Of a stretch of 39,496 nt of DNA, positions 2,895 through 37,501 are shown one piece after another. The notes below the pieces were generated by a model. It ran no database searches, was not told where the DNA came from, and saw only the letters and a program-made list of their open reading frames with translations. The stretch is taken from the NCBI GenBank assembly GCA_043811335.1, contig JBDRNI010000040.1:1-39496 (forward strand), read 5' to 3'. Position 1 is the stretch's first letter. Every line of letters starts with the position of its first letter. A program made the position numbers and the translations under genes. This DNA is from Candidatus Omnitrophota bacterium (GTDB lineage: Bacteria; Omnitrophota; Gorgyraeia; Tantalellales; Tantalellaceae).

Positions 2895-2972
2895 GAACAC
2901 AGAGGACACTGAAGAAGACAGAGGACACTGAATTCTGTGTTCTCTGAAAATTCAGTGTTTTCAGTGTTGCAA
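2895..2972. repeat. Family A palindromic element, copy A1 (rplJ|rplL spacer)
   Basis: ACAGAGGACACTGAA occurs twice (2899-2913, 2918-2932), opposed by TTCAGTGT twice (2951-2958, 2960-2967). GAACACAGA (2895-2903) pairs with TCTGTGTTC (2933-2941). The element ends GTTGCAA, directly before SD AAGGAGG and the rplL ATG. Confidence 0.85.
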
Positions 2973-2982
2973 AGGAGGAAAA

Positions 2983-3519
2983 ATGCTAGAGGAAAAGAAA
3001 GAAAAAGAACAGGCAAAAGCCGCTGAGGCACCCGAAAAGGCGCCGGACGCTGTAAAAACACCGGCCCCGGGAAAAACCGAGACCGTTGTGGCCGAAAAAA
3101 AAGCCGAGGTGAAAAAACCCAAGGTGAAGCTCTCCGCAAAATTGGAAGGCCTTATCAAGAATATAGAAGAAATGAGTGTTCTTGAGCTTTCTGATCTTGT
3201 AAAGGCCATTGAGGACAGATTTGATGTCAGTGCCGCCGCTCCGGTAGCGGCCATGACAGTCGCCGGGGCAGCAGGCGCAGGAGCGACAGCCGCCGGCGCA
3301 GAAGAAAAGAATGTCTTCACTGTTGTTCTTGCTGAGATTGGTCCGAAAAAGATCAATGTTATCAAGGAGGTCAGGGCTTTGACGAATCTCGGGCTTAAAG
3401 AGGCGAAAGACCTGGTAGAATCGGCCCCGAAAGAGATCAAAGAAGGTCTCATGAAAGAAGAAGCCGAAAAAATGAAGAAACAGCTTGAAGCTGTCGGTGC
3501 GAAGGTCGAGCTGAAGTAA
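2983..3519 (+). CDS. rplL: 50S ribosomal protein L7/L12 with a 47-aa K/E/A/P-rich N-terminal extension
   Basis: Canonical L12 starts near residue 48 ([35 protein letters not shown]), followed by an Ala-rich hinge and a CTD ending VGAKVELK. The ATG at 2983 has a strong AAGGAGG SD. An alternative GTG lies at 3124. Confidence 0.9.
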
Positions 3520-3541
3520 ATATACTTTGGGAGCTTCAATA

Positions 3542-3597
3542 GGTTAAAGGTAAAAGGTCAAAGTTTTTTCTTGAACCTTGAGCCTTTAATCTTTTTA
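3542..3597 (+). terminator. possible intrinsic attenuator between rplL and rpoB
   Basis: Imperfect A/U-rich hairpin: TTAAAGG (3544-3550) pairs with CCTTTAA (3583-3589), and AAGGTCAA pairs with TTGAACCTT. A TTTTT run follows at 3593-3597. An attenuator at this position is known in E. coli. Confidence 0.4.
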
Positions 3598-3646
3598 TGG
3601 GGTTTCCGGAACGTTGGTGACACAAAAAAAGAGGACGGAGTGCAGA

Positions 3647-6600
3647 ATGACTGTTAAAGTCAAGCGAAAAAGTTACACCAGGCTAAAACAGGTTTATGAT
3701 ATTCCCAATCTACTCAAGATCCAAATTGACTCGTACGCGGAGTTCCTGCAGCGCTTTGTGCCGAAGACAAAAAGGGCAAACCGCGGGTTGGAATGCCTTT
3801 TTCGTGAAGTGTTTCCGATCACTAGCCAGAACGGCGTGTACCGGCTTGAGTATCTGTATTACGATATAGCTCGTCCGAAATACGATACGGAGGAGTGCAA
3901 GCACCGTTCTCTCACATATGCGGCGCCTCTCCGGGTAAAACTGCGCCTGCGGCTGGAAAACGAGATAAAAGAGCAGGAAGTCTATATGGGGGAGATCCCC
4001 CTCATGACGGATGTAGGCACCTATATCATCAACGGTGACGAACGGGTCGTCGTGAGTCAACTCCATCGGTCACCGGGGATATCGTTTGAGGAAAGCGCTT
4101 CGCCCGGCAGCAAACCGATCTATTCGGCACGGCTTATCCCTGACAGAGGCGCGTGGATAGAATTTCTGTTTGATAAAAATGACCTGCTTTATGTATACAT
4201 TGATCGCAAGAGAAAATTTCTGGCCACGACATTTCTGAGGATTTTCGGTCTGTCCAGAGACGGAGATATTCTCAAGGCGTTCGGCGGCGTGGAAGAAGTG
4301 CTGTTAACGCGCGAGAAACAGTGCGAAGAACTGATAGACCGCGTTCTCGCTGAAGATATTGTTGACGAGAATTCTTCTTCCATATTGGCTCAGCAGATGG
4401 AAAAGATCACGCCTGCTGTCGCAAACCGGATGTGGGGAAACAAGATCCGAAAAGTCAAATTATTGCAGTCAATCCCCAAAGAGATAATAAACACGCTGGA
4501 GCACGACGGAACAAAGACCAGAGAAGAAGCATATCTTGATGTTTACCGCAAGCTTCGCCCGGGTGATCCTCCGACCCTTGAGGCCGCCAAGGATCTGCTT
4601 GCTCAGATGTTTTTTGACAAGAGGCGGTATAATCTCACCGATGTCGGCATGCGCATGATAAACCGCAAACTCGGGTTGAACCGCGCGCTTGATGCTCAAC
4701 TGCTTGACGGCGAAACGCTGGTTCAGGCGATCAAAGCCCTGCTTGAGATAAAGTCAGGGAAAAGAAGCATAGATGATATTGATCATCTCGGTAACAGACG
4801 TATAAGATGCGTGGGTGAGCAGCTTTCCAATCAGATACGCATAAGCATGGCCCGTGTCGAACGAGTGGCTAAGGAGAGAATGAGCGTTTACGAGATGAGC
4901 GAAGTCATGCCGCACAATATCGTCAACACGAAACTCATCACGAGCGTGATCCATGATTTTTTTGCAAGGGGAAGATTATCGCAGTTCATGGACCAGACGA
5001 ACCCGCTTGCCGAGCTGACGCATCTCAGAAGATTGAGCGCGCTTGGTCCGGGCGGCCTTAACCGTGAACGCGCCGGTTTTGAAGTTCGTGACGTTCACTA
5101 TTCGCACTACGGCAGGTTATGTCCGATCGAGACCCCGGAAGGTCCGAATATCGGCCTTATCAATTCGCTCAGCACCTATTCCGGAGTTGATGAATTCGGT
5201 TTTTTGGTTACGCCCTATCGCAAGGTAGAGAAAAAACAGGTTCTGGATACCGTGGAGTATCTTTCCGCGGATATAGAGGATAAATACATCATCGCCCAGG
5301 CGAACTCGCCTCTCGACGGACAGGGACATTTTAAGGAAGATAAGGTGTTCTGTCGGTTTAAGGACGATTTTATCCTTGCTTCAGCCGCTGATGTTCAGTA
5401 TATGGACGTTTCCCCGCTTCAGCTCGTGAGTATCTGCGCGGGGCTCATACCTTTTCTGGAACATGATGACGCAAACAGAGCGCTCATGGGGTCCAACATG
5501 CAGAGACAGGCTGTTCCGCTCCTGTTTCCCGAGGCTCCGCTTGTCGGAACAGGACTGGAGTATCGCACGGCGAAAGATTCCGGCGCGCTGGTCATTGCGC
5601 AAAAGGGCGGAAGTGTTACCAAGATTGACGGAAAAGAGATAGTGGTGTCCGGAGAAAAATATTCCCTCAAGAAATTTGAGAGAACCAATGCCAGAACAAG
5701 CGTTAATCAGAGACCGGTCGTGAAACTCGGAGAAACTGTCAAAGCAGGGGATCTCCTTGCCGACGGCATTTCAACGGATAACGGTGAACTTGCGCTCGGA
5801 AAGAACGTTCTGGTCGGTTTCATGTCATGGCGGGGATACAATTTTGAAGACGCGATTCTCATAAACGAGAACCTGTTGAAGGAAGACGCGTTTACATCCG
5901 TTCACATACACCGATTCGAGTTGGAAGCGCGCGATACAAGACTCGGCAACGAAGAAGTGACGGGAGATATTCCCAATGTTGGCGAAGAAACCCTCAAAAA
6001 TCTGGATGAGAACGGTATTATTTGCATTGGCGCGGAAGTGGCCGCGGGAAGCATATTGGTAGGGAAGGTCGCTCCCAAATCCGAGACCGAGCTTTCGCCG
6101 GAAGAAAAACTGCTGCGAGCGATCTTCGGAGAAAAAGCCGGTGATGTTAAGGATGTGTCGCTCCGAGTCCCTTCGGGGATCAGCGGCATAGTTGTTGATG
6201 TCAAGGAACTCTCGCGCAAGAACAGAAAAACTCTGACAAAGAATCAGCGGGGAAGCGATTCCGCCGAGAGAAAGATCGTTGAAGAGGGCTATCGGAACAT
6301 TATTGAACAGCTGGAGCTCAAAAAGGCCGAGAGAGTTTTTCAGCGTCTGGTCGGGAGCAAACTGGTAAATGGGATTGAAGACTTAAAAACGGGAAAGATC
6401 CTGATAAAAGCAGGGAAACTGATAACAGATGAAGATCTTCCAAAATTTAAGCAGGCAATATTGGACGACCTTTGCGTGGATAACGACGAAAAACTCCAGA
6501 TAAGGATCAACAATATCGTTGCGACTGCCGACAGCCAGATCGAGCAGACAATGATAGAGATGGAAAGGGATCTGGACAGGATAAAACACGGCGATGAACT

Positions 6601-7363: not shown

Positions 7364-7368
7364 AAAAT

Positions 7369-10300: not shown

Positions 10301-11424
10301 CGGACGGCGCGCCTATAAAGAAAAAGACGAAATACGCCGAGTGGGATCCATATACGATCCCGATATTGACGGAAGTTAACGGTAAGGTTCAGTATGAGGA
10401 CATCAAGAAAGATATTACGATGAAGATCGAGACGGATGAGGCAACGGGCGTGAAAAACAGAGTCGTGATCGATCAGAAAGGCGACTATCATCCGCAGCTT
10501 CTTATCCTGAACGGGAAGGGTGATGTTGAGGCGATCTATCCTCTTCCGGTCAATGCTCATATTGCGGTCAAGGACAAGGAAGAGGTCAAGGCCGGTGACG
10601 TACTGGCCAAGATGCACAGGGTGTTGACAAAGACAAAGGATATCACGGGAGGTCTACCGCGTGTGGCTGAGCTTTTTGAGGCCAGAAAACCGAAAGATCC
10701 TTCCATTATCAGTGAGATAGCGGGAACGGTTGAGTTTGGCGAATCAAAAAAGGGTGAGAAAAGAATAATCGTTGAAAGTGAAGCGGGGATGAGGAAAGAA
10801 TATGTTATCCCTCACGGGAAGCATCTTAATGTATACCGCGGGGATGTCGTTTCAGCGGGGGAACAGCTTGTTGACGGACCTGTGGTGCCGCAGGATATCT
10901 TGCGGGTTTCGGGAGAGAAAAAACTTCAGGAATATCTTCTTAATGAGATTCAGGAAGTATATCGTTTGCAGGGCGTGCAGATAAACGACAAGCATATTGA
11001 AACGATCATCAGGCAGATGCTCAGGAGCGTCAAAATAACGGACTCCGGGGATACCAGTTTTCTCGACGGTGATAAAGTGGAGAAGACTATTTTTAAAAAA
11101 GAGAACGAGAGAATGATAAAGAAGAAGAAAAAACCCGCGTCTGCCGAGCCCGTTCTTCAGGGCATAACGAAGGCCTCGCTCACTACGGAAAGTTTTATCT
11201 CGGCCGCGAGTTTTCAGGAAACCACGAGGGTTTTGACGGAAGCGGCCGCAGCCGGAAAAACGGACAATTTGACGGGCCTGAAAGAGAATATCATCATGGG
11301 GCATTTGATACCAGCGGGAACGGGATATGAAGAGCACAGAAAAATCTCGCTGGTCCGTGAGGTATTAAAAGAAGAAGTAAAAAAAGTAGAAGAAGGTAGC
11401 ACTGAGGACACTGAAAAGAACTGA
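7369..11424 (+). CDS. rpoC: DNA-directed RNA polymerase subunit beta'
   Basis: 1351-aa protein with a Zn finger ([23 protein letters not shown]) and the catalytic [12 protein letters not shown] motif. The last ~8 codons lie inside repeat copy A2. Confidence 0.97.
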
Positions 11425-11447
11425 GAACACTGAATTCAGTGTCGCAA
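11399..11447. repeat. Family A element, short copy A2 (overlaps rpoC 3' end, precedes rpsL)
   Basis: ACTGAGGACACTGAAAAGAACTGAGAACACTGAATTCAGTGTCGCAA, followed by AGGAG and the rpsL ATG. Confidence 0.8.
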
Positions 11448-11458
11448 AGGAGCAATAA

Positions 11459-14453: not shown

Positions 14454-15650
14454 ATGGCCAAGAAAAAATTTGAGAGAACAAAGCCGCATTTGAACATTGG
14501 AACGATAGGGCACGTAGACCACGGCAAGACGACACTCACAGCCGCGATCACGATGTACCTGGCGCACAAGGGACAGGCGGAAGTGCGCGCGTTTGATACG
14601 ATCGATAAGGCGCCTGAAGAGAAGGAACGCGGCATAACGATCGCGGTAGCGCACGTGGAATACGAGACGGATAAAAGACACTATGCGCATATAGACTGTC
14701 CCGGGCACGCGGATTACATCAAGAACATGATCACGGGCGCGGCTCAGATGGACGGAGCGATATTGGTGGTATCGGCGGCCGACGGCCCGATGCCGCAAAC
14801 ACGAGAGCACATATTGCTGGCCAGACAGGTAAACGTGCCGGCGCTGGTGGTGTTCATGAACAAGGTGGACATGGTAGACGACAAGGAGCTCTTGGACCTC
14901 GTAGAACTTGAGGTAAGGGAACTCTTAAACAAATATAATTTCCCGGGCGATGATACTCCGATAATCAAGGGCAGCGCGTTGAAGGCGATGGAAGCGAAAG
15001 GCGCGTTGGACAATGAGGATTGCAAATTTATAGGCGAGTTGATGGACGCTGTGGACACGTTCATACCCCAGCCGGTGCGCGATATAGACAAACCGTTTCT
15101 GATGCCCGTTGAAGACGTGTTCAGCATAACGGGAAGAGGAACAGTAGGCACCGGAAGGATAGAACGAGGCCAGGTAAAAGTGGGCGAAGATATCGAGATA
15201 GTGGGTCTCGGCGCGACGAAGAAGACGACGGTAACGGGGATAGAGATGTTCCGTAAGCTGTTGGATTCGGGACAGGCGGGAGATAACGTGGGAGTGCTCT
15301 TGCGCGGCATAGAGAAGACAGACCTGGAAAGAGGACAGGTGCTTGCAGCGCCGGGAACGATCACACCGCATACGAAATTCAAAGCGGAAGTATATATATT
15401 GAGCAAGGAAGAAGGCGGGCGGCACACGCCGTTTTTTAACGGATACCGGCCGCAGTTTTATATCCGGACAACGGACGTAACGGGAGTGGCAAAGCTGCCC
15501 GAAGGGGTAGAGATGGTAATGCCCGGAGATAACGTCACGATAGAAGTGGAACTGATAGCGCCGGTGGCGTTGGAAAAAGAGTTAAGATTTGCGATACGTG
15601 AAGGCGGACGCACTGTAGGCGCGGGAGTGGTCTCAGAAGTGATCGCCTGA
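14454..15650 (+). CDS. tuf: elongation factor Tu (complete copy)
   Basis: [21 protein letters not shown] and NKVD motifs, 398 aa, strong AAGGAGG SD. Confidence 0.98.
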
Positions 15651-15668
15651 TAACGGAGCGAGGACAAA

Positions 15669-15986
15669 ATGGCTAAGAAGACAAAATCAGCAAGGATACG
15701 TTTACGTTTAAAGTCGTTTGACCATAAGCTTCTTGACATGTCAATGGCAGAAATAGTGGCGACGGTCAAGAAAACCGGTGCAACCGTGGTGGGGCCGGTG
15801 CCTATTCCGACCAGACGTGAGCTTTATACTGTTTTAAGGTCGCCGAATGTGGACAAAAAATCACGGGAGCAGTTTGAGCTCAAAACGCATAAAAGGCTTT
15901 TGGATATCGTGGATTCCACAGCAAGGACGATAGACTCTTTGCGCAAGCTGGATCTTCCGGCCGGTGTGGACGTAGAGATAAAATAA
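15669..15986 (+). CDS. rpsJ: 30S ribosomal protein S10
   Basis: [14 protein letters not shown]... is typical of S10. It is the first gene of an S10-type cluster. Confidence 0.96.
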
Positions 15987-16085
15987 TGACAAATGACAAA
16001 ATTCAAAGCACAAAATAAAAGTTTGGGCATTGGAATTTAAGATTTTGGATTTATTTTGAATTTTGTGCTTTGTCATTTGAATTTT
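15986..16085. repeat. Family B palindromic element, copy B1 (rpsJ|rplC spacer)
   Basis: AAATGACAAAATTCAAAGCACAAAAT (left) faces ATTTTGTGCTTTGTCATTTGA (right) around an A/T-rich centre. It is related to 25383..25492 and 34676..34807. Confidence 0.85.
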
Positions 16086-16122
16086 AAGAAGGTGTTTGTG
16101 CTTAAAATAGTGGGGTAGTTGA

Positions 16123-16818
16123 ATGGTTCCGGGAATACTTGGAAAAAAAATAGGCATGACACAGATATTCGGGGAGGACGGCCGCAGGACGCCCGTGACG
16201 GTCGTGAAAGCGGGCCCCTGTTCCGTGCAGGCAGTGAAGACACCGAAGAAAGATGGATACAGTGCCGTCCGCATGGGATATGAAGACGTAAAGGAAAAAC
16301 GCGTCAAAAAACCCCAAAGGGAAGAGCTTAAGTCCCGTAATCTGAAACCGAAGAGATTTGTTCGGGAAATAAGGTGTGATGAAACCCTGGAAGTAAAAGT
16401 CGGAGATGAGGTAACGCTCGGAATTTTTCAAAAAGGCGATTTTCTGGATATTACCGGCATATCAAAGGGAAAAGGATTTCAGGGCGGCATGAAAAGACAC
16501 GGGTGGTACGGCGGACAGGAGACGCATGGATCAATGTCACACCGCGCGCCGGGTTCCATAGGAGCCAGTTCTTTTCCATCGCGCGTTTTTAAAGGACAAA
16601 CCATGCCGGGTCAAATGGGGAATGTGCGGACTACTATCCAGAATGTCCAGATCGTTGACACGGATGCCGCCAATAACACGATTGCGGTTAGAGGCGCTAT
16701 TCCCGGAGCGAACGGCACGTATCTTATTATTCGGTACGCTAAAAAGAAACCTCTTGCGCCGCGTAGCACGAGTTCTGTCATCCCCGCGAAAGCGGGGATC
16801 CAGAATGGAAAAGAATAG
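16123..16818 (+). CDS. rplC: 50S ribosomal protein L3 with a repeat-derived C-terminal tail
   Basis: [16 protein letters not shown]... [13 protein letters not shown] motifs. The last ~14 codons ([15 protein letters not shown]) lie in repeat family E. Confidence 0.95.
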
Positions 16819-16845
16819 ATAGATTCCCGCTTTCGCGGGAATGAC
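16777..16845. repeat. Family E: two inverted copies of a 24-nt mini-hairpin
   Basis: GTCATCCCCGCGAAAGCGGGGATC (16777-16800) faces GATTCCCGCTTTCGCGGGAATGAC (16822-16845). The two differences between the copies are compensatory within each hairpin stem. Confidence 0.85.
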
Positions 16846-16865
16846 GACGAAAGACTCAAAGAACG

Positions 16866-19999: not shown

Positions 20000-20005
20000 T
20001 GCGTT

Positions 20006-20182
20006 AAAATTCTAAGCACTAAATCCGAAATGCTAAACAAATAACAATGATTTAAACCCCAAATTCTAAATTGTTTTGTATTTCGGGCGTTACGGTTCGT
20101 GTTAACATTCTGGTTTGGGATTTGGAATATTAAAAAATTGAGCTTTGTTTAGGATTTAGAAATTCGGATTTCGGATTTTTCG
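20006..20182. repeat. Family C long palindromic element, copy C1 (rpsC|rplP spacer)
   Basis: Left arm AAAATTCTAAGCACTAAATCCGAAATGCTAAACAAA faces right arm TTTGTTTAGGATTTAGAAATTCGGATTTCGGATTTTT. The conserved centre ATTCTGGTTTGGGATTTGG is shared with 23060..23278. Confidence 0.85.
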
Positions 20183-20223
20183 TGCACGAATCGGGTTTGC
20201 AAGAGTAAATTGGGAGCGATATC

Positions 20224-23018: not shown

Positions 23019-23059
23019 AAAAGGCACGGATTAACACGGATACAGAGGGACGAGGTGAT

Positions 23060-23278
23060 AAAATTCTAAATACTAAATCCGAAATACTAAACAAACAACA
23101 ATGATTCAAATCACAAATTCCAAACCATTTCCGTATAGCTTTCGTTTAACTATTCTGGTTTGGGATTTGGGACATTAGGAATTAGTATTTGTTTAGTATT
23201 TAGATATTCGGATTTAGGATTTTCGTATATAGGAATTAGGATTTGTTTAGGATTTAGAGATTTGGATTTAGTATTTTT
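23060..23278. repeat. Family C element, copy C2 (rpsH|rplF spacer), right arm tandemly duplicated
   Basis: AAAATTCTAAATACTAAATCCGAAATACTAAACAAA ... ATTCTGGTTTGGGATTTGG ... then two successive right-arm copies (about 23177-23229 and 23231-23278). Confidence 0.85.
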
Positions 23279-23310
23279 GCTAGTGTGAACAAAAAGGTAA
23301 AGGACAAAAG

Positions 23311-24248: not shown

Positions 24249-24839
24249 ATGCAGAATAAAGAAGAAAAACCCGCTGTAACACCCGGAGAAACACCTTCCG
24301 ACGCGGGACGAGAAAATAAAAATAGACCGGAAGAAAGACCGTCAAGAGGCGGGGGCGGTTTTTCAAAAAAATCCGATAAGGAATTTCCTGAACACGTCGT
24401 AAAGATAAACAGGGTATCAAAGGTCGTAAAGGGCGGCAGAAATTTTTCTTTCAGCGCTCTTGTCGTTACGGGCGATGGTAAAGGACGCGTCGGTGTGGGA
24501 TTCGGAAAATCCAATGAAGTAGTGGAATCAATAAAAAAGGGCGTGGTAAAAGCGAAAAAGAACCTTGTTTTAATTAATCTGAAGGGCGATACCATACCGC
24601 ATGAAGTGATGGGCAAATACAAGGCATCCAGGGTACTTTTGAAGCCGGCTTCGCCGGGAACAGGAGTAATCGCCGGTGGACCCGTGAGAGCGCTCTGTGA
24701 GGCGGTAGGCATAAAAAATATTCTCACGAAAAGTCTTGGGTCAAGAAACGCCATAAATGTTATAAAAGCCGCTCTGTGCGGGCTCCAGCAGCTGCAATTC
24801 AAGCGAAAAGGGTGCAACACAGAGGACACTGAATTATGA
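24249..24839 (+). CDS. rpsE: 30S ribosomal protein S5 (about 35-aa N-terminal extension; C-terminus inside repeat A3)
   Basis: [39 protein letters not shown] core. The last residues NTEDTEL are encoded by the family A motif. Confidence 0.95.
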
Positions 24840-24914
24840 CACTGAGGGCGCTGAGGGAAACTGAGAACACTGATTTCTGTGTTCTCAGAAGTTTCAGTGT
24901 GTTCAGTGTTGCAA
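24816..24914. repeat. Family A element, copy A3 (rpsE|rplO spacer, where rpmD usually sits)
   Basis: AACACAGAGGACACTGAA ... CTGAGAACACTGATTTCTGTGTTCTCAGAAGTTTCAGTGTGTTCAGTGTTGCAA, followed by TGGAGG and the rplO ATG. Confidence 0.85.
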
Positions 24915-24926
24915 TGGAGGAAACTA

Positions 24927-25391
24927 ATGGTACTTAGGATAGAAGACATCAGGAGACCGCGGGGAATAAAAAAGCCTGGTAAACGCAAAGGCCGCGGTAT
25001 AGGTTCAGGGCGCGGAAAGACCAGTGGTCGTGGCCATAAAGGGGCGAAATCGCGATCCGGCGGCGGCGTATACAATCCCGGGTTTGAGGGTGGGCAGATG
25101 CCTCTGGTGAGACGCATTCCCAAGAGAGGATTCACGAACAAGTTTAGACGGGCAAAAAATGTTATAAACACAGGCACTCTGCAGAGGGTTGAGGCGATCG
25201 CGGACGGAGCGGTTATTGATAACGCTTTTTTGCTTGATGCGAGGATTATCCGGAAAAAAGGATTACCGCTCAAGGTCCTGGCAAAAGGAAGATTAGACAA
25301 GGCGATAACCGTGAAGGCCGATGCGTTTTCACTGGCGGCGAAAAAAGGCATTGAAGAAGCCGGCGGTAAAGCAATAAATAATGTCAAATGA
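24927..25391 (+). CDS. rplO: 50S ribosomal protein L15
   Basis: MVLRIEDIRRPRGIKKPGKRKGRGIGSGRGKTSGRGHKG. The ATG at 24927 lies 6 nt after GGAGG. The track start at 24879 extends into the repeat. Confidence 0.94.
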   Translation: MVLRIEDIRRPRGIKKPGKRKGRGIGSGRGKTSGRGHKGAKSRSGGGVYNPGFEGGQMPLVRRIPKRGFTNKFRRAKNVINTGTLQRVEAIADGAVIDNAFLLDARIIRKKGLPLKVLAKGRLDKAITVKADAFSLAAKKGIEEAGGKAINNVK

Positions 25392-25492
25392 CAAAATTCA
25401 AAAAACAAAACACCAGATAAAATTTAATGTTTTGTTATTTGGATTTGGGATTTTGGATTTATTTTGGATTTTGTGCTTTGTCATTTGAGTTT
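25383..25492. repeat. Family B element, copy B2 (overlaps the rplO stop; rplO|secY spacer)
   Basis: GTCAAATGACAAAATTCAAAAAAC ... GGATTTGGGATTTTGGATTTATTTTGGATTTTGTGCTTTGTCATTTGAG. Confidence 0.85.
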
Positions 25493-25532
25493 AACAGTTG
25501 GTTGTCCACTGTTTTTAAGACAGGAGTAATGG

Positions 25533-26882: not shown

Positions 26883-27571
26883 CGCTGAAGAAAGAGTTTA
26901 ATCTGGTTCTTTTAGGACCTCCCGGCGCCGGCAAGGGAACGCAGGCAGGTTATTTGACAAAAGCGTATCATCTGCCCCATGTTTCTACGGGAGACATGCT
27001 GCGCGAGGCCGTGAAAGAAGGCACCGAAACGGGAATAGAGGCCGAGAAGTATATGAATTCCGGGGAGCTTGTTCCCGATTCCGTCGTGACGCGTATCATG
27101 ATAGAGCGGATGGCCAAGCCGGATGCTGCAGGCGGCGTGATATTTGATGGATATCCGCGAACCGTTCCGCAGGCCGGATCGCTTGATGACGCGTTGATCA
27201 AGGAAGAACGCTCTTTGAATGTTGTGCTGTATTTTGAAACAACCGAGAAAGTTGCTGTCGAGAGGCTTTCCGGACGGAGAGTTTGCGGTAAGTGCAGCAA
27301 GAACTATCACGTTACTAACATGCCTCCGGCAAAAGATGGAACATGCGACGTTTGCGGTGGAGAACTTATACAGCGGGAAGACGACAAACCGGAAACGGTA
27401 AAAAATCGGTTAGCAGTTTATAAGGAACGTACGAAAGACCTTATTGAGTATTACGAGAAAAAAGGCCTCTTAAGGGAAGTTAACGGTGATCTTCCGGCTA
27501 AACAGCTCTTTGATGATATAGACGCTCTTTTTCGTCAGGAAGGCCTGATAAATGACGGTGATAACGGATAA
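26879..27571 (+). CDS. adk: adenylate kinase with Zn-binding lid
   Basis: GPPGAGKGT P-loop, STGDMLR, DGYPRT, and lid CGKC...CDVCGG. Confidence 0.96.
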   Translation: MTLKKEFNLVLLGPPGAGKGTQAGYLTKAYHLPHVSTGDMLREAVKEGTETGIEAEKYMNSGELVPDSVVTRIMIERMAKPDAAGGVIFDGYPRTVPQAGSLDDALIKEERSLNVVLYFETTEKVAVERLSGRRVCGKCSKNYHVTNMPPAKDGTCDVCGGELIQREDDKPETVKNRLAVYKERTKDLIEYYEKKGLLREVNGDLPAKQLFDDIDALFRQEGLINDGDNG

Positions 27572-28629: not shown

Positions 28630-28640
28630 AGTTGATATAT

Positions 28641-28759
28641 AGTGAACAGTGATCTGTGATCAGTGAGTAGTGATCAGCCAGAAACAACATATGGGGCAAA
28701 AAACAAAGAATACTTAAACGTACAGATCACAGATCACTGATCACTGTTCACAGATCACT
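28641..28759. repeat. Family D element, copy D1: inverted arrays of five 7-nt units (WGTGAWC) around a 45-nt loop
   Basis: Left arm AGTGAAC AGTGATC TGTGATC AGTGAGT AGTGATC (28641-28677). Right arm AGATCAC AGATCAC TGATCAC TGTTCAC AGATCAC (28723-28759). It contains 7 GATC sites. Confidence 0.85.
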
Positions 28760-28788
28760 AAATATTGCGACACAAAGAGGAGTAACAC

Positions 28789-29193: not shown

Positions 29194-29222
29194 CGGGGTG
29201 AACCCCGGCAGGAAAGGAAACC

Positions 29223-29615
29223 GTGCAAAAAAGGCCGAAGACAAAAAAGCGTAAGAAAATAATAAGAAAAGTATCCGCCGGAAAGGTATACGTCCATGCG
29301 ACGTTCAATAATACCATAGTGACCGTAACGGACACTATGGGAAAGACCCTGTGCTGGAGTTCGCCCGGCATGGTTGGTTTCAAGGGATCCAGAAAATCCA
29401 CCCCCTTTGCAGCAACGGTGGCGGCAAAAGACGCGGTCAGGAAGGCGAAGACATTTGGAATAAAGGACGTAGAAGTATTTCTCAGGGGGCCCGGTTCAGG
29501 CAAGGAAAGCGCCGTGAGAAGCATCAGATCCGAAGGCCTTAACGTGCGGACCATAATAGACCTGACACCGACCCCGCACAATGGATGCAGGCCGAAGAAA
29601 AGGAGAAGAGTATAA
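29223..29615 (+). CDS. rpsK: 30S ribosomal protein S11 (GTG start)
   Basis: [18 protein letters not shown]... [16 protein letters not shown]. Confidence 0.95.
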
Positions 29616-30247: not shown

Positions 30248-30299
30248 TCAGTTGCATTTTGTAAGTGTTGAATAGAACAGGGGTTACGACGAAGGAGGG

Positions 30300-31298: not shown

Positions 31299-31306
31299 AC
31301 GGTAAA

Positions 31307-31912: not shown

Positions 31913-31935
31913 CGATCACCGATTTTCCCGCCAAA

Positions 31936-31966
31936 GGCAGACCCGCCTCCGGCGGGCTTGTCTGCC
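31936..31966 (+). terminator. GC-rich hairpin after rplQ (possible terminator, no T-run)
   Basis: GGCAGACCCGCC-TCC-GGCGGG(CTTG)TCTGCC. Confidence 0.3.
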
Positions 31967-32008
31967 GCAGATCAAAGGGTTTTACACCTACCACGTGGAG
32001 AGTGCAGC

Positions 32009-34624
32009 ATGGGGTCAGCTCTTACGCCGATGATGCGGCAATATCTGGATATCAAGCAGCAGCATACCGATTCTATTCTTTTCTTCCGACTCGGCGATTT
32101 CTATGAGATGTTCTTTGATGATGCCGTCGAGGCCACGCGCATACTTCACATCACGCTTACTTCCAGAGGTAAAGATAAGGATAAAAAAGTGCCGATGTGC
32201 GGCATTCCTTATCACGCCGCAGACAACTACATCGCACGACTTATAAAACACGGAAAAAAAGTCGCTATTTGTGACCAAATGGAAGCGCCTGTCGCGGGCA
32301 AAAGCATTGTTCGCAGAGAGGTCACGCGGATAGTGACGCCGGGGACGGTTACGGCAGATACCCTTCTGGAAGGGGCGGTAAACAATTATATTCTTTCACT
32401 CAGCGTATCGGGCGCGAAATTCGGCATTGCGTACGCGGACATATCAACCGGCGAATTCTGCGTCATGGAGTTTGACAACAAAGAAGACCTTTTTGCTGAA
32501 CTCTATAAGATCTCACCTGCAGAATGTCTGGTTTCCGAAAGTTTCCACAAAAATAAAGATTTCCATGAATTTAACAAGGCAAACCTCGGCGTGGTGACCG
32601 TGAACGACGACTGGATGTTTGATCATGAATTGTCCCTGAAGGAGATTAAACGTCATTTCGCGGTGGAAAGTCTTGAAGGATTTGGATGCTCCGAATTGAA
32701 CGCCGCGGTGGAAGCCGCCGGCGCGCTTTTAAAATATCTGAAGAACACGCAGAAAAACCGCCTGGGGAATATAGACGTTATATCCACGCGCCGCGCCGAT
32801 CACTTCATGGCCATGGATCGGAATTCTCACCGCCACCTGGAACTTATACGGAACCAGGAGGACCTATCCGTCAGGGGGACGCTCTTTGAGGTTCTTGACG
32901 GGACAAAAACCCCGATGGGAAAAAGAAAACTTAAAGAATGGATATTGAACCCTCTTACAAGCGTTGATGAAATAAAGAACCGCTTGGACCTCGTGCAGTA
33001 TTTTTACGACAACACGTCCTGCCGCCGCAAAGCAAGAGAACTTCTCAATGACATGTATGATATAGAACGGCTTTCCGGCCGGGTAAATATGGGCATGGCC
33101 AACGCCAGAGACATGACGGCGCTTGGGGCCTCTCTCAAAAATGTCGGCCGGATGCGGACCGGTTTTTCCGGAAAAATACCGCCGGGGCTGCAGGACATTA
33201 TAACGGATCTGGATGATTTCAGCGATGTGATAAAATGGATAGACGACTGTCTCGTGGTATCGCCCCCGGCGACTTTGCATGAGGGCGGGCTGATTAAAGA
33301 GGGGTATTCTCCGGAGATTGACGAGTTGAGACGTTTGGTGGATGGAGGAAAGGACTGGGTCGCGGATCTTCAAAAAAGTGAGATCAAGCGGACGGGGATA
33401 AACTCTCTCAAGGTAGGGTTTAACAGTGTGTTCGGGTATTATATTGAAGTTACCAGGGCCAATCTGGACGCCGTTCCGTCCGATTATGTGCGCAAGCAGA
33501 CCCTCGTGAACGCGGAACGGTTTATCACTCAGGCGCTGAAAGAGCAGGAATCAAAGATAATAGGGGCCTCCGAGCGCGCGAGGGTCATGGAATATGAAGT
33601 GTTCTCTTGCCTGCGTGACAAGGTAGGGACCGAGATTGAACGATTAAAAAGAACGGCCCGCCGCGTTGCCGAAACAGATGTTCTTTCAAATCTCGCGGAA
33701 AGCGCCGTCGTGAACCGTTACTGTCGTCCGGAGATGAATACCGGCAGCGGCATGAGCGTTGTTGAGGGTCGTCATCCCGTTCTTGAAAAAATACTGAAAG
33801 ACAAGGCGTTCGTGCCGAATGATCTTTCCATGAACAACGATGACAAAAGGGTTTTCATAATAACCGGATCTAACATGGCGGGCAAATCCACATTCATACG
33901 GCAGATGGCGCTTATTATCATAATGGCCCAGATGGGGAGTTTTGTTCCGGCCTCTTCCGCGGAAATCGGGATAGTGGACAGGATCTTCACGCGTGTCGGC
34001 GCTTCGGACAGATTATATCACGGCATGAGCACGTTCATGGTGGAGATGCTGGAGACGGCTAACATACTTAACAATGCTGCCGGGAAAAGCCTTATTATCC
34101 TGGATGAGATCGGAAGGGGAACGAGCACATTTGACGGCGTAGCCATTGCGTGGGCGACGGTTGAATTCATACACGGGCATCTTCCGGGCGCAAAGGCGAT
34201 GTTCGCCACGCATTATCACGAACTCACGGAATTGGCGGATGTCATGCGCGGGGTTAAGAACTATCATCTTGCGATCAAGGAATGGTGTGATGAGATCATA
34301 TTTCTTTATAAGGTGACCGAGGGGAGCTGTGACGAAAGTTTCGGCATACACGTTGCGCGTCTGGCCGGCATGCCCAGGGCCGTGATCACGCGAGCGCGTG
34401 AGATCCTGGATAATCTGCAGAAGGATTCTACCACGGGCAATATCCGCATGCGTTTTTCAAAAAAGAAAAAAACACAAAATGACCAACTAAATTTTTTCAA
34501 CGCCGAACAAAAAGAACACCCTGTTATCGGGAAGATCAAAGGGCTGGACACTGACAGTCTGACGCCACTTGAGGCGTTGAAAAAACTGGCAGACCTTAAG
34601 CGCGAAGTTGGGGACGGAGATTAG
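32009..34624 (+). CDS. mutS: DNA mismatch repair protein MutS
   Basis: MGSALTPMMRQYLDIKQQH... Walker A GSNMAGKST. The ATG at 32009 follows GGAGAG. The track start at 31958 is an upstream TTG inside the hairpin. Confidence 0.95.
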   Translation: MGSALTPMMRQYLDIKQQHTDSILFFRLGDFYEMFFDDAVEATRILHITLTSRGKDKDKKVPMCGIPYHAADNYIARLIKHGKKVAICDQMEAPVAGKSIVRREVTRIVTPGTVTADTLLEGAVNNYILSLSVSGAKFGIAYADISTGEFCVMEFDNKEDLFAELYKISPAECLVSESFHKNKDFHEFNKANLGVVTVNDDWMFDHELSLKEIKRHFAVESLEGFGCSELNAAVEAAGALLKYLKNTQKNRLGNIDVISTRRADHFMAMDRNSHRHLELIRNQEDLSVRGTLFEVLDGTKTPMGKRKLKEWILNPLTSVDEIKNRLDLVQYFYDNTSCRRKARELLNDMYDIERLSGRVNMGMANARDMTALGASLKNVGRMRTGFSGKIPPGLQDIITDLDDFSDVIKWIDDCLVVSPPATLHEGGLIKEGYSPEIDELRRLVDGGKDWVADLQKSEIKRTGINSLKVGFNSVFGYYIEVTRANLDAVPSDYVRKQTLVNAERFITQALKEQESKIIGASERARVMEYEVFSCLRDKVGTEIERLKRTARRVAETDVLSNLAESAVVNRYCRPEMNTGSGMSVVEGRHPVLEKILKDKAFVPNDLSMNNDDKRVFIITGSNMAGKSTFIRQMALIIIMAQMGSFVPASSAEIGIVDRIFTRVGASDRLYHGMSTFMVEMLETANILNNAAGKSLIILDEIGRGTSTFDGVAIAWATVEFIHGHLPGAKAMFATHYHELTELADVMRGVKNYHLAIKEWCDEIIFLYKVTEGSCDESFGIHVARLAGMPRAVITRAREILDNLQKDSTTGNIRMRFSKKKKTQNDQLNFFNAEQKEHPVIGKIKGLDTDSLTPLEALKKLADLKREVGDGD

Positions 34625-34840
34625 TGATCAGTGATCTGTAATCTGTGATCAGGCAGAAACGACGGGCGAAGTAATGTCAAATGACAAAGCACAAAATCCA
34701 AAATAAATCCAAAATCTCAAATTCAAATAATAAAACATTGGTTTTTCTGTTTTTGAATTTTGTTATTTGAGCTTATTTTGTGCTTTGAATTTTGTCATTT
34801 GGATTTTACAGTTCACTACTCACAGATCACTGTTCACTAC
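34623..34840. repeat. Family D element, copy D2, split by a family B insertion
   Basis: Left arm AGTGATC AGTGATC TGTAATC TGTGATC AG (34623-34652), then loop start GCAGAAACGAC (compare D1 CCAGAAACAAC). Right arm CAGTTCAC TACTCAC AGATCAC TGTTCAC (34809-34840). Confidence 0.8.
34676..34807. repeat. Family B element, copy B3, inverted relative to B2 and lying inside the D2 loop
   Basis: GTCAAATGACAAAGCACAAAATCCAAAATAAATCCAAAATCTCAAATTC matches the reverse complement of the B2 right arm. The right end is TTATTTTGTGCTTTGAATTTTGTCATTTGG. Confidence 0.85.
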
Positions 34841-34854
34841 AATGGGAGCTAAAC

Positions 34855-36579
34855 ATGATAAGTATACTCAGTGACGCCGTTATCGGTAAAATTTCTGCTG
34901 GGGAAGTCGTGGAACGCCCGGCATCTGTCGTCAAAGAACTGGTGGAAAACGCGATTGACGCCGGCTCAAAGAGCATTGAGATAGAACTGAGCGCTGCGGG
35001 ACAGGACCTCATCAGGGTTGCGGATGACGGGGAGGGCATGACGCCGGAAGACGCGAAAATGGCATGCGGACGTTATGCCACGAGTAAATTGCGGAGTATT
35101 GATGATCTTGAGAAAATATCTACCCTGGGATTCAGGGGGGAAGCGCTTTCAAGTATAGCCGCCGTTTCACAGACGGAGGTCACGACCCGGACGGCGGCGG
35201 CCGGCTCAGGTGTATACGTTTATCTTGAGGGCGGCCAGATGTTGAAGACGCGCCCGGCGGCGCGCACGCCGGGAACGACGGTGGAGATCAGAAACCTTTT
35301 TTATAATGTTCCGGCTCGCCGGAAATTTCTGAAAAAAGGATCCACGGAGCTGGCCGCTATCGTGGATGTCGTCGGAAGATTTATCATAGGGCATCCGGAT
35401 ATTGAGTTCAGGTTAACGCAGGACGGAAGACGCCTTCTGGACGGCGCAAAAAACGCGGACATGAAAGAAAGAATACGGCTGGTGCTCGGCGGAGATATTT
35501 CCGACCACATGGTAGAAATAACGCATTCTTTTGAAGAATATGAGATCAGCGGATATGTGAGCAGTCCTTCGCATACCAGAAAAGACCGCCGCGCCCAGAT
35601 GTTTTTCGTCAACAAAAGATTTTTCAGGAGCAACGTCATCAATGACGCTGTTTATGGGGCTTATAGGAGCCTTCTGGAGAGAGGGCGATACCCTGCCGCC
35701 GTGCTTTTTCTGAAGGTTTCCCCGAGCGCGGTTGATGTAAACGTGCACCCGACGAAACTTCAGGTGAAATTTGACGATGATAAGACAGTAAGAAGCCTTG
35801 TTGTAGGGGCAATAAAAAATAAATTCAATGAGATTCGCAGAACGGTCCCCCAGGTTTTACCCTGCGGCCCGGAAGACGGCATTTTAGCGCCGGACGGCAT
35901 GTTTGCGGAAAACGACGAGGTCCAGAGCGAATTCGGGTATAACCTGCGGAAAGGCCCGTTTCAGATGAAAGGGATCGCTTCTTTTTCCCGGGATGAAGAC
36001 CGCTTTCTCGCAGAAGGGGCCGGTTTGTTCCAGATAGGCGCCTGTTACATCGTGCAATTGGCCCCGGATGGTATTACGATCACGGATCAGCATGCGGCGC
36101 ATGAGAGGGTGCTGTATGAATTTTTCACGAGGGCCACGGAGGAAAATCCGCCGGAGACGCAGAACCTTCTCTTCCCGGCGCGTATAGATCTTTCTGCCGG
36201 CGAAGCGGTCATCATGGAAAAAGTAATAGGGGATTTCAGAAATCTCGGTTTTCATATTGAACCGTTCGGAGGAAAAACATTTATAGCCCAGGCAGTGCCC
36301 GCCATCTTGAAGGATAGGGACATAACCACGGTCATACATGATATCCTTGCGGATCTGGCATCGCGCGACCTCGCGCGAATGAACCTTTCTGAGGAGCTTG
36401 TCAAGATGACGTCCTGCCGCGCGGCAATAAAATCCGGCGATGCAATGGAGAAAGAAGAGATGATCTCGCTCCTGGATCAGCTCAGCAGGTGTTCCCTCCC
36501 CTTCACCTGCCCCCACGGCCGCCCAACAACAACAACAATAACGATCGAAGAGTTGGAAAAACGCTTCCACCGAAAATAA
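34855..36579 (+). CDS. mutL: DNA mismatch repair protein MutL (endonuclease-type)
   Basis: MISILSDAVIGKISAGEVVERPASVVKELVENAIDAG is a GHKL ATPase. DQHAAHERVLYE (36085-36120) and CPHGRP motifs are present. The ATG at 34855 lies 6 nt after GGGAG. The track start at 34792 extends into the repeats. Confidence 0.94.
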   Translation: MISILSDAVIGKISAGEVVERPASVVKELVENAIDAGSKSIEIELSAAGQDLIRVADDGEGMTPEDAKMACGRYATSKLRSIDDLEKISTLGFRGEALSSIAAVSQTEVTTRTAAAGSGVYVYLEGGQMLKTRPAARTPGTTVEIRNLFYNVPARRKFLKKGSTELAAIVDVVGRFIIGHPDIEFRLTQDGRRLLDGAKNADMKERIRLVLGGDISDHMVEITHSFEEYEISGYVSSPSHTRKDRRAQMFFVNKRFFRSNVINDAVYGAYRSLLERGRYPAAVLFLKVSPSAVDVNVHPTKLQVKFDDDKTVRSLVVGAIKNKFNEIRRTVPQVLPCGPEDGILAPDGMFAENDEVQSEFGYNLRKGPFQMKGIASFSRDEDRFLAEGAGLFQIGACYIVQLAPDGITITDQHAAHERVLYEFFTRATEENPPETQNLLFPARIDLSAGEAVIMEKVIGDFRNLGFHIEPFGGKTFIAQAVPAILKDRDITTVIHDILADLASRDLARMNLSEELVKMTSCRAAIKSGDAMEKEEMISLLDQLSRCSLPFTCPHGRPTTTTITIEELEKRFHRK

Positions 36580-36580
36580 T

Positions 36581-36620
36581 GGGGGACATGTCATTTGGGG
36601 ACACCCCTCCCGCACAAAAA
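36581..36620. repeat. Family F, left copy of a perfect 40-bp inverted repeat flanking nth
   Basis: GGGGGACATGTCATTTGGGGACACCCCTCCCGCACAAAAA is the exact reverse complement of 37462..37501. Confidence 0.95.
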
Positions 36621-36661
36621 AACACCGTTTTTGAACATTTTCTTAAACAGGACAAACCATT

Positions 36662-37297
36662 ATGGACAAAAAAACAGCAAACAGAATATACAAGGCGCTT
36701 GAAGCGGAATATCCCGAAGTCACCACCGCGCTGAAACACGCGAACGCCCTGGAGATCCTCGTGGCGACGATATTATCCGCGCAGTGTACGGATAAACGCG
36801 TTAACATGGTCACGGAATACCTTTTTAAAAAGTATAAAAAAGTGGCGGATTACGCGGACGCGAAAAGATCAAAATTTGAAGAGGAAATAAGGTCAACAGG
36901 TTTTTACCGGAACAAGGCGAAAAACATCATCGCCGCCGCTAAAATGATCAGCCGCGATTTCGGCGGAAAAGTCCCCGACAACATGAACGACCTTGTGACT
37001 TTGCCCGGCGTGGCGCGTAAGACCGCGAATATAGTCCTCTTTCACGCCCACGGCAAAAACGAGGGTATAGCCGTAGATACCCACGTGCGCCGCCTCAGCG
37101 GCCGCCTGGGCCTTACAAAGCACACAGATCCGGTCAAGATAGAACGTGATCTCATGGCGCTTTTTAACAGGCGGAAATGGGGCGATCTGTCAAACCTTCT
37201 AATATCCCACGGCCGCAAGTTCTGCACAGCGCGCAAGCCCCGCTGCTCTGAATGCTTTCTCCACAAACTCTGCCCCCGCATTGGCATCAACACATAA
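36662..37297 (+). CDS. nth: endonuclease III (DNA glycosylase / AP lyase)
   Basis: HhH-GPD motif LVTLPGVARKTANIV and C-terminal 4Fe-4S cluster CTARKPRCSECFLHKLC. Confidence 0.93.
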   Translation: MDKKTANRIYKALEAEYPEVTTALKHANALEILVATILSAQCTDKRVNMVTEYLFKKYKKVADYADAKRSKFEEEIRSTGFYRNKAKNIIAAAKMISRDFGGKVPDNMNDLVTLPGVARKTANIVLFHAHGKNEGIAVDTHVRRLSGRLGLTKHTDPVKIERDLMALFNRRKWGDLSNLLISHGRKFCTARKPRCSECFLHKLCPRIGINT

Positions 37298-37334
37298 CCG
37301 TAGACATTAATTAACAAATTCTTCCAGCCCATTT

Positions 37335-37432
37335 TTCCGGCCCGGGACCGTTCCGGCCCGGGACCGGAAATAAAGGACCGGAAATAAAGGTGGGACCGTT
37401 CCGGTCGGACCGTTCCGGTCCCGGGCCGGAAG
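37335..37432. repeat. Family G: GC-rich compound direct and inverted repeat downstream of nth
   Basis: TTCCGGCCCGGGACCG x2 (37335-37366), GAAATAAAGG x2 (37367-37376, 37381-37390), GGACCGTTCCGGTC x2 (37393-37420). The outer 16-mer pairs perfectly with CGGTCCCGGGCCGGAA (37417-37432). Confidence 0.85.
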
Positions 37433-37461
37433 TTAGGGTAGAAACTGCTCAAAGCGGTGGA

Positions 37462-37501
37462 TTTTTGTGCGGGAGGGGTGTCCCCAAATGACATGTCCCC
37501 C
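37462..37501. repeat. Family F, right copy of the 40-bp inverted repeat
   Basis: TTTTTGTGCGGGAGGGGTGTCCCCAAATGACATGTCCCCC. Confidence 0.95.

Follow-up and report, generated by a model that had tools for sequence, protein, structure and literature searches.

RESULTS

Repeats between the genes of a ribosomal cluster

The DNA analyzed here (the window) comprises positions 1 to 39,496 of contig JBDRNI010000040.1, 39,496 nucleotides (nt), from assembly GCA_043811335.1 of a Candidatus Omnitrophota bacterium. All its genes lie on the + strand. The 5′ part carries the 3′ end of a tuf gene, tRNA-Trp, secE, nusG, rplKAJL, rpoBC, rpsLG, fusA, and a second tuf; the 3′ part carries the S10, spc, and alpha ribosomal clusters with secY, adk, map, and infA, followed by mutS, mutL, and nth. 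Hairpin-forming repeats occupy about one-third of the gaps between these ribosomal and neighboring genes, and they are the subject of this report. When RpsC was compared with the GTDB species representatives, the best match was to an Omnitrophota metagenome-assembled genome (MAG; L001) at 80% identity, followed by other Omnitrophota at 49 to 55%.

After refinement of start codons, 15 of the 45 gene junctions were 45 nt or longer; the remainder were short or overlapping. The spacers measured 109 nt (rplJ-rplL), 136 nt (rpsJ-rplC), 224 nt (rpsC-rplP), 292 nt (rpsH-rplF), 87 nt (rpsE-rplO), 141 nt (rplO-secY), 159 nt (rpmJ-rpsM), 230 nt (mutS-mutL), and 82 nt (mutL-nth). At rpoC-rpsL the spacer is just 34 nt and the repeat extends 25 nt back into rpoC, and at rplC-rplD it is 47 nt, with an additional repeat copy within the 3′ end of rplC. 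The region 3′ of nth also holds inverted repeats. A first-pass annotation, made from the letters of this DNA alone, had named 12 junctions as carrying palindromic elements; all 12 carry hairpins or inverted repeats, as do two further junctions, rplL-rpoB (3541 to 3592) and rplQ-mutS (31925 to 31975). The element load of the window is 15 in 37 kb (Table 1). Our repeat search also returned the families assigned in that annotation: A and B with three copies each, C and D with two, and E, F, and G as single loci. Junctions free of elements were short or overlapping (−23 to +30 nt), as had been claimed, with the exceptions of fusA-tuf (51 nt), rpsN-rpsH (63 nt), and rpsD-rpoA (52 nt).

Table 1. Repeat elements of the window. 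Free energies are of predicted RNA folds; z compares each element with 200 dinucleotide shuffles of itself.
Element	Location	Coordinates	Strand	Energy (kcal/mol)	z	Structure and boundaries
A copy 1	rplJ-rplL	2890-2982	+	−36.7	−6.6	Hairpin 2896-2968; tail GCAAAGGAGGAAAA is the Shine-Dalgarno source; rplL ATG at 2983
H	rplL-rpoB	3541-3592	+	−21.4	−5.7	AAAGGTN heptamer arms, then CTTTTTAT
A copy 2, truncated	rpoC-rpsL	11400-11458	+		−1.9	Weak fold; left arm is the last 8 rpoC codons (STEDTEKN + stop); right end TTCAGTGTCGCAAAGGAGC precedes rpsL ATG
B copy 1 (B1)	rpsJ-rplC	15984-16089	+		−4.9	NNNCAAA / TTTGNNN heptamer arms; begins at rpsJ stop codon (TAA in TAATGACAAATGACAAA; TAA of TAATGACAAATGA)
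E	rplC-rplD	16776-16846	+	−41.7	−8.6	Inverted dimer of GC-rich palindrome, TGTCATCCCCGCGAAAGCGGGGATC ... GATTCCCGCTTTCGCGGGAATGACG; straddles rplC stop codon (16816-16818); first copy encodes RplC tail
C copy 1	rpsC-rplP	20005-20185	+	−48.1	−4.3	Long hairpin, CTAAANN / NNTTTAG heptamer arms
C copy 2	rpsH-rplF	23059-23280	+	−55.4	−5.2	Left arm 23059-23127; two tandem right arms, 23145-23223 and 23224-23280
A copy 3	rpsE-rplO	24799-24926	+	−42.0	−8.5	Hairpin 24838-24910; additional unit in rpsE 3′ end encodes NTEDTEL + stop; tail GCAATGGAGGAAA precedes rplO ATG at 24927
B copy 2 (B2)	rplO-secY	25379-25502	+		−3.7	rplO stop codon (TGA) within left arm
D copy 1 (D1)	rpmJ-rpsM	28637-28768	+	−42.6	−5.7	YAGTGAT / GATCACW heptamer arms
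T	rplQ-mutS	31925-31975	+		−2.4	Pair of small GC-rich hairpins
D copy 2 (D2) + B copy 3 (B3), composite	mutS-mutL	34619-34840	+	−64.1	−6.4	D2 outer arms 34619-34652 and 34807-34840; B3 (34668-34806) nested in loop; mutS stop codon within D left arm
F copy 1	mutL-nth	36581-36631	+			Begins 1 nt past mutL stop codon
G	3′ of nth	37340-37439	+	−64.9	−5.7	GC-rich palindrome, GGACCG-type direct units
F copy 2		37451-37501	−			Inverted relative to copy 1; 51-nt arms, 94% complementary

Two kinds of element

The elements measure 52 to 222 nt and are all noncoding. They are of two kinds: long hairpins (70 to 230 nt) made of inverted arrays of degenerate short units, and short GC-rich palindromes (E, T, F, and G) of the repetitive extragenic palindrome (REP) type. 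In the long hairpins the unit is about 9 nt for A and 7 nt for the others (B, C, D, and H); the period of G is different again. In B, C, D, and H the arms are arrays of the degenerate heptamers NNNCAAA, CTAAANN, YAGTGAT, and AAAGGTN, respectively, which occur as inverted pairs forming stems of 30 to 80 bp. Autocorrelation at lag 7 was 0.50 to 0.88 in these arms (0.75 to 0.88 in H) versus 0.24 in coding DNA. Copies of one family vary in how many units they have and in the sequence in which these follow each other, as B3 and B1 do. The families had been described as unrelated. Families A to G are real, but because B, C, D, and H share the 7-nt modular architecture, "unrelated" is too strong, and the repeat finder joins B and C at 60 to 64% identity.

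Family B is near-palindromic over its whole length, with conserved ends of the form TAATG(A/T)CAAATGACAAAATTCAAAG ... TTTGTCATTTG(R)(R)TTT. An ordered 33-nt end (ATGACAAATGACAAAATTCAAAGCACAAAATAA or near variants) was present in about half of the approximately 118 family B ends. About half of the ends, including window positions 15985 to 16017 and many of the loci L084 to L203, start with TAATG, a stop-start overlap, and continue as a 10-codon frame, MTNDK(I/A)Q(S/N/M)(T/P)K. Reminiscent as it is of a translational-coupling signal, this frame probably reflects conservation of the element end only. We rejected the family B mini-open reading frame (mini-ORF) as a peptide gene because its variation is not coding-like: mini-ORFs that start at the terminal ATG run for 5 to 100 codons without a codon-phase pattern, which agrees with the first-pass statement that the repeats lack coding capacity.

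In family E, two copies of a GC-rich, 25-nt palindrome, which has CGTC unpaired at one of its ends, form an inverted dimer. The reverse complement of positions 16822 to 16846 is CGTCATTCCCGCGAAAGCGGGAATC, and the other copy is TGTCATCCCCGCGAAAGCGGGGATC; the core is ATTCCCGC-GAAA-GCGGGAAT, and one of the two copies has TGTC in place of CGTC. By its sequence, we assign family E to the CGTC-tagged REP dimers.

Both orientations had been reported for the elements. This holds for family F only; the orientation of B, C, and D, being near-palindromes, is unreadable from sequence, and all four known copies of A (three in the window and one on metagenome contig L173) are in the sense orientation.

Some smaller features of the families may be recorded here. 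The arms of family D contain one GATC per 7 nt (7 sites in D1), and one D copy lies between mutS and mutL; GATC is overrepresented across the window (254 observed versus 146 expected). The core of F contains the family B motif TGTCATTTG. The two F copies bracket nth and the G palindrome, making a cassette-like unit of about 920 nt, and on contig L097 a 172-amino-acid (aa) gene is likewise bracketed by inverted TGACAAA arrays.

Fit to stop codons and ribosome-binding sites

Elements begin, at 5′ ends that are stop-codon-rich, on the stop codon of the upstream gene, directly beside it, or within a few nucleotides of it, with a median of 3 nt between that codon and the start of the element. A long ORF stopped within −8 to +15 nt of 31 of the 105 canonical family B ends, and about two-thirds of the ORFs that stop at family B ends use a stop codon overlapping the element's first bases. 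The terminal codons of rpoC (…TEDTEKN), rpsE (…TEDTEL), and rplC in the window, and of ispE on L173, have been rewritten by element sequence. The effect on coding sequence is confined to the last 5 to 14 codons plus the stop codon.

At their 3′ ends the elements always stop short of the downstream Shine-Dalgarno sequence, and all Shine-Dalgarno sequences lie outside the stems. All four known copies of family A (upstream of rplL, rplO, and rpsL in the window and of spoVG on L173) share the tail GCAA(A/T)GGAG(G/C)…ATG; thus, family A carries its own ribosome-binding site.

Two ribosomal proteins have N-terminal extensions. That of RplL (about 53 aa; 2983 to 3140) is rich in K, E, A, and P, precedes the L12 dimerization domain, and begins exactly at the Shine-Dalgarno sequence and ATG that family A supplies; that of RpsE is about 46 aa (24249 to 24390). 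These extensions could be real or could have been created by the elements.

Between-gene orientation gave little signal: 37 of 42 family B copies (88%) lay between codirectional genes, versus 83% codirectional pairs in the background. We therefore rejected a preference for operon-internal sites.

Folding and strand bias

The predicted RNA folds of the elements had free energies of −21 to −65 kcal/mol and z-scores of −3.7 to −8.6, and none of the 200 shuffles of an element folded as well; there were two weak exceptions, the truncated A copy and the T hairpin (Table 1). The stems are long and mostly AU-rich, and the T runs after B, C, and H belong to T-rich arms. A consensus scan for terminators flagged none of the elements on the sense strand, the sole match within an element being on the minus strand of the family E REP; hairpin H was not flagged by a simple terminator scan. 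At the gathering score, an Rfam scan of the window returned tRNA-Trp only, and at E < 1 it added just spurious plant microRNA models far below their thresholds; the same scan of nine related loci gave no matches. Family C copy 2, with one left and two right arms, could form two mutually exclusive stems.

Because near-palindromes are alike on both strands, the strand on which imperfections are tolerated as G:U pairs is their sole signal of orientation. We compared sense with antisense folds; counts of G:U against A·C within a single minimum-free-energy fold are biased toward G:U. The sense strand folded better in 8 of the 12 window elements compared (Wilcoxon P = 0.04), with a gain of 4 to 14 kcal/mol for A, H, B, and C, and the folds contained 43 G:U pairs in the sense versus 25 in the antisense direction. 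Among metagenome copies of family B between codirectional genes, 26 of 37 folded better in the sense strand (P = 0.015). In three copies of family A, 95% of cells were paired; nearly all the variation was between A and G facing an invariant U, and one change was compensatory. These results are suggestive, although not decisive, of a constraint acting on the sense strand at the RNA level.

Relatives and metagenomes

In L001, the closest genome, four junctions that are occupied in the window (rpsC-rplP, rpsH-rplF, rpsE-rplO, and rplO-secY) measure 47, 64, 11, and 5 nt. L001 has instead a different 120-nt repeat at rplB-rpsS and rpmJ-rpsM, plus short heptamer runs elsewhere. The rpmJ-rpsM spacer is long in both genomes, and the two spacer sequences are unrelated. 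Family B occupies other junctions in other loci: secY-adk and rpsD-rpoA in L050 (UBA6233), and rplV-rpsC in metagenome contigs L093 and L147, the latter of which clusters with Omnitrophota by its ribosomal proteins. Empty orthologous sites and shifting positions accord with the first-pass view of the elements as dispersed repeats.

Another motif, separate from these families, is found repeatedly in the ribosomal spacers of Omnitrophota. It consists of a hairpin, GGATTAATTCG, a second hairpin, and CTCATTAA, usually stands directly before the Shine-Dalgarno sequence, and has no Rfam match; its TTAAT could pair with ATTAA. Sites are at 3057 to 3296 and 12848 to 13156 in L001, 3061 to 3193 in L042, and 2942 to 3026 and 8364 to 8457 in L044.

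A degenerate 27-nt family B pattern matched at least 120 metagenome contigs. About 100 of the 128 family B matches listed were hairpins, with a median length of 118 nt; the other 28 among those listed were direct arrays without a hairpin, and L097, L106, and L132 held pure tandem runs of TGACAAA. (A shorter, 19-mer pattern gave three chance matches and no element in viral contigs, and the longer pattern was then used for the metagenome scan.) The direct TGACAAA array of L106 (about 2300 to 2350) is accompanied by a HIP1-like site, GCGATCGC, and the contig looks cyanobacterial; this heptamer may therefore occur as a classical direct repeat outside the Omnitrophota. Hairpins of the CAAA type numbered three in the window and three in 112 kb of Omnitrophota ribosomal loci; the ribosomal loci of other phyla (1.2 Mb) contained none. 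Family B ends were 90 to 93% identical over 30 to 36 nt between lineages whose conserved coding DNA is about 65% identical.

The closest copies of the window elements came from four contigs of one metagenome, Ga0208325 (L103, L144, L151, and L173). B2 was 92.7% identical over 124 nt, including the loop, to a copy at an unrelated locus in L103, and B3 was 85% identical over 131 nt to a copy in L144. A copy 1 (A1) matched L173 between ispE and spoVG (92% over 86 nt), where the upstream gene ends inside the element, as in the window. T matched L151 (96.6% over 29 nt), and E-type dimers were found in L151 (2026 to 2182, with the same architecture) and L114. With families A, B, and E at nonribosomal loci of one metagenome, and B in so many contigs, the results favor the dispersal that had been proposed, typical of transposable elements of the miniature inverted-repeat type (MITEs) and REPs. 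The Ga0208325 contigs also carry repeat families that the window lacks: a CAAGATA-type heptamer hairpin (L144, 8070 to 8274; L173, 1146 to 1327), tandem units of about 60 nt (L173, 10207 to 10443 and 11113 to 11368), and a long GTAACTT/GAAACTT array around a GC-rich core (L151, 4841 to 5233).

The Ga0208325 contigs, which were selected for family B, held about 13 elements of several families in 36 kb, or about 1 per 3 kb. This density is similar to that of the window, and thus the ribosomal cluster is no special target; together with the background-level codirectional placement, it goes against the idea that the elements target operon-internal sites or the ribosomal cluster. As to the unusual density that had been claimed, the window is clearly the most colonized only among the Omnitrophota loci sampled. 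The comparison of spacer load with other phyla is confounded, and we did not use it either way: the other-phyla spacers are inflated by the gene bounds from tblastn and by genes outside the query set (e.g., rpmD between rpsE and rplO), and their folding energies by high GC content.

DISCUSSION

Origin of the elements

We put at roughly 60% the probability that dispersed, nonautonomous palindromic repeats fill intergenic gaps genome-wide in this Omnitrophota lineage, that the ribosomal cluster is not spared, and that the repeats are cotranscribed and tolerated because they are looped out. Spread by copy-and-paste would be favored by the near-identical full-length copies, which include nonperiodic parts, by the conserved end of about 33 nt, and by the nesting of B in D. 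Besides B3, which sits in the loop of D2 between mutS and mutL, a family B hairpin in L103 has a D-like arm on one side, and another in L098 is nested in an A-like hairpin.

Several observations weigh against this explanation. The dinucleotide TA flanks each of the five best-aligned family B copies on either side, and is also present where B3 is nested in D2, but of the 105 canonical family B ends just 44 (42%) are preceded by TA and 40 by AA, and no consistent target-site duplication was found; the heterogeneity of the ends likewise counts against a classical transposon, and the variable order and number of units fit local array dynamics as well as they fit transposition. Neither a transposase nor an autonomous element whose ends match turned up in the window or in the contigs bearing family B, a small sample of approximately 780 kb. 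(The first-pass annotation had likewise seen no transposase; the sole unassigned ORF of the window, from 37682 to its end, has an adenylate kinase domain. Pairs of inverted family B ends 0.5 to 3.5 kb apart, considered as a possible autonomous parent, enclose only ordinary genes such as trpE-like, comM-like, and recR-like genes.) The sense-strand folding bias is modest, and sense orientation is confounded with the likely leading strand; in the metagenome copies of family B, G:U counts were nearly equal between the strands (83 versus 71), and for the window elements the observed ratio of G:U to A·C, 63:37, is not clearly beyond the 57:43 predicted from base composition. Copy number within a genome is estimated from contigs of a single metagenome, and that these contigs come from a close relative is suggested solely by the similarity of their repeat copies.

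If the dispersal explanation is right, tolerance would follow from the folding and the ends of the elements. Because all the genes lie on one strand, the elements would be transcribed within the polycistronic mRNA and form long stem-loops. Folding would loop the insert out and leave the upstream stop codon and the downstream ribosome-binding site adjacent at the base of the stem; with these two kept together, translation of the operon would be preserved, and insertions would be tolerated even in an essential and highly expressed cluster. With stop-rich 5′ ends and a free or built-in Shine-Dalgarno sequence at the 3′ end, an insert between two genes would do almost no damage. Judging from Correia and ERIC elements, the stems would probably also be cut by an RNase III-type enzyme or protect 3′ ends as hairpins, and so partition the transcript, but as a side effect and not as the reason for their presence.

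The main rival, which we judge unlikely, is that the elements arose in place: heptamer arrays would grow by replication slippage and be made palindromic by template switching or fold-back synthesis, without transposition, and copies would resemble each other through a shared mutational process acting on a few favored heptamers. The strong 7-nt periodicity of the arms, the shuffled units of B3 and B1, the 28 hairpin-free direct arrays and pure TGACAAA runs, and the points about ends, target sites, and transposases just given would all fit. Moreover, among the long simple-sequence repeats of prokaryotes those with 7-nt units are the most frequent, and slippage has been suggested to cause them (PMC4679880). 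Against this rival stand the full-length identity of more than 92% across nonperiodic loop and flank at unrelated loci (B2 and L103; A1 and L173), the ordered 33-nt sequence shared by about half of the family B ends, the nesting of one family inside another, and family A, which has little simple periodicity and a conserved, nonrepetitive tail.

Alternatively, selection may maintain the elements for a function. The first-pass annotation had suggested recruitment for mRNA processing, stability, or differential translation, and what speaks for this, weakly, is the sense-strand folding bias. In its fuller form, the proposal is that the elements are signals between cistrons for processing or stability, or arrays of sites bound by a protein covering about 7 nt per monomer (cold-shock-domain or S1-like) that would open or close the stem and so set the relative output of the cistrons. 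The folding bias, the A/G changes opposite a fixed U in family A and the sense orientation of all its copies, the conservation of family B ends between distant lineages, and the alternative right arms of family C copy 2 are in its favor, as is the finding that CspB binds heptamer repeats, one protein per heptamer (PMC4679880). Yet element positions are unconserved even between the two closest genomes, elements adjoin genes of every kind with codirectional placement at the genomic background, the G:U bias is weak and partly due to base composition, low-complexity periodic arms inflate the identity between lineages, and no protein partner was identified; we regard this explanation as improbable. 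Mobility and function could also be combined. The heptamer hairpins (B, C, D, H, and loosely A) might be an undescribed, phylum-wide class of operon-compatible mobile RNA modules, serving as regulated intercistronic insulators or processing sites, whose sequence is held constant across deep lineages by a conserved protein with a 7-nt footprint; each hairpin would supply 5′ stop codons and leave or supply a 3′ ribosome-binding site, and the protein might bind RNA through a cold-shock or S1-like domain, or might be a single-strand transposase of a new kind. We consider this idea improbable as well.

Very unlikely, and largely refuted for families A to G, is that the elements are ancient autoregulatory leaders or attenuators specific to ribosomal protein operons. 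The rpmJ-rpsM junction is long in both the window and L001, and hairpin H, which is followed by a T run, possibly lies at the classical rplL-rpoB attenuator position, where E. coli has an attenuator and an RNase III site. But no Rfam family was matched at the gathering score, the terminator scan flagged only the minus strand of family E, the orthologous L001 junctions are empty, the two rpmJ-rpsM spacers are unrelated in sequence, and the same elements recur at nonribosomal loci. Judged by this recurrence, genome-wide and across the phylum, the elements are not ribosomal control sites or conserved leaders. That they are assembly artifacts, i.e., chimeric joins at repeats, is the explanation to which we give the least credence. 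Repeats can mislead assemblers, but the gene order is canonical and unbroken over 45 junctions, reading frames pass cleanly into and out of the elements, and elements of this kind also lie between genes in independent assemblies (GTDB MAGs and Joint Genome Institute contigs).

Comparison with known repeats

The long hairpins resemble the MITE-like Correia/NEMIS elements of Neisseria, ERIC/IRU of enterobacteria, RUP of pneumococcus, and Chunjie of Geobacter in size (100 to 200 nt), lack of coding capacity, terminal inverted repeats, long stem-loop, intergenic and often intra-operon placement, and the ability to fuse to ORF ends. Among these relatives in kind, Correia, ERIC, and Chunjie are cotranscribed, cleaved by RNase III, or inserted in operons without disruption, and RNase III cleavage or effects on mRNA stability have been documented for Correia and ERIC. 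Unlike such MITEs, the elements described here have arms that are arrays of degenerate 7-nt units, variable in number and order, with no consistent TA duplication and no cognate insertion sequence found, and family A brings its own 3′ Shine-Dalgarno sequence. REPs of the CGTC type are GC-rich palindromes of 20 to 40 bp with an unpaired CGTC at one end (Di Nocera et al., PMC3733652); Neisseria dRS3 and Rickettsia RPE-6 are of the CGTC-1 type (PMC3733652). Family E matches them in its palindrome, tag, and inverted homodimer, in its position downstream of and partly inside a coding region, and in its recurrence on other contigs. In contrast to REPs and BIMEs, families A to D are 73 to 222 nt long (3 to 8 times longer), are AT-rich or of mixed composition, and have no GTAG or CGTC tag.

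The second likeness is to heptamer tandem repeats, such as cyanobacterial STRRs, long simple-sequence repeats, and the TAACTGA repeats of Beggiatoaceae, which also consist of 7-nt head-to-tail units in intergenic positions near start codons. TAACTGA direct repeats occur in the ribosomal protein operons of Candidatus Maribeggiatoa, upstream of L3, S4, and fusA, and their patchy distribution suggests transfer (PMC4679880). A single exact heptamer makes up those direct arrays (MacGregor counted 169 direct sets and one indirect repeat only [PMC4679880]), whereas ours are degenerate units in inverted pairs. Rickettsia palindromic elements (RPEs) likewise insert into genes that are conserved and essential and are translated along with these, as are the RpoC, RpsE, and RplC tails here; but RPEs lie in frame within genes, and here just the last 5 to 14 codons and the stop codon are affected. 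In full-text literature searches we met no account of degenerate heptamers in inverted arrays with stop- and Shine-Dalgarno-compatible ends across Omnitrophota, and the main survey of Omnitrophota genomes does not mention such elements. The combination of inverted degenerate-heptamer stems, compatible ends, and Omnitrophota-wide spread thus appears to be new, with relatives already known among MITEs, REPs, and heptamer repeats.

The window illustrates that a most conserved and highly expressed cluster can absorb a dozen or more repeats provided that these fold out of the way and spare the stop codons and ribosome-binding sites, which amounts to a concrete rule for harmless insertion inside an operon. 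It also links two topics that are usually separate, heptamer simple-sequence repeats and palindromic MITE/REP elements, and provides many natural variants with which to ask whether the heptamer periodicity is a unit of polymerase slippage or the footprint of a protein. For the uncultured and poorly known Omnitrophota, the repeats are a recognizable genomic signature that could aid binning and strain tracking. Gene calls in the phylum are likely to be distorted at both ends, by element-encoded C-terminal tails and by false N-terminal extensions.

Other features of the window

Positions 1 to 129 (the 3′ end of the first tuf) are 100% identical over 129 nt to positions 15553 to 15681 (the 3′ end of the second tuf and its downstream spacer), and the two tuf genes look as if they have been homogenized by gene conversion. 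There is no rpmD gene, encoding L30, between rpsE and rplO (24840 to 24926), and in the sampled Omnitrophota loci L001, L041, and L050 the rpsE-rplO gap is too small for one. The window's rpsN is of the short, 61-aa zinc type. The ORF that runs off the end of the window (37682 to 39496) begins with about 340 aa of uncharacterized N-terminal sequence, hydrophobic at its start, to which a complete adenylate kinase domain is fused (Pfam ADK, E = 4e-45); its DNA is 72 to 73% identical to the adk gene of the operon (26900 to 27199 and 27440 to 27543).

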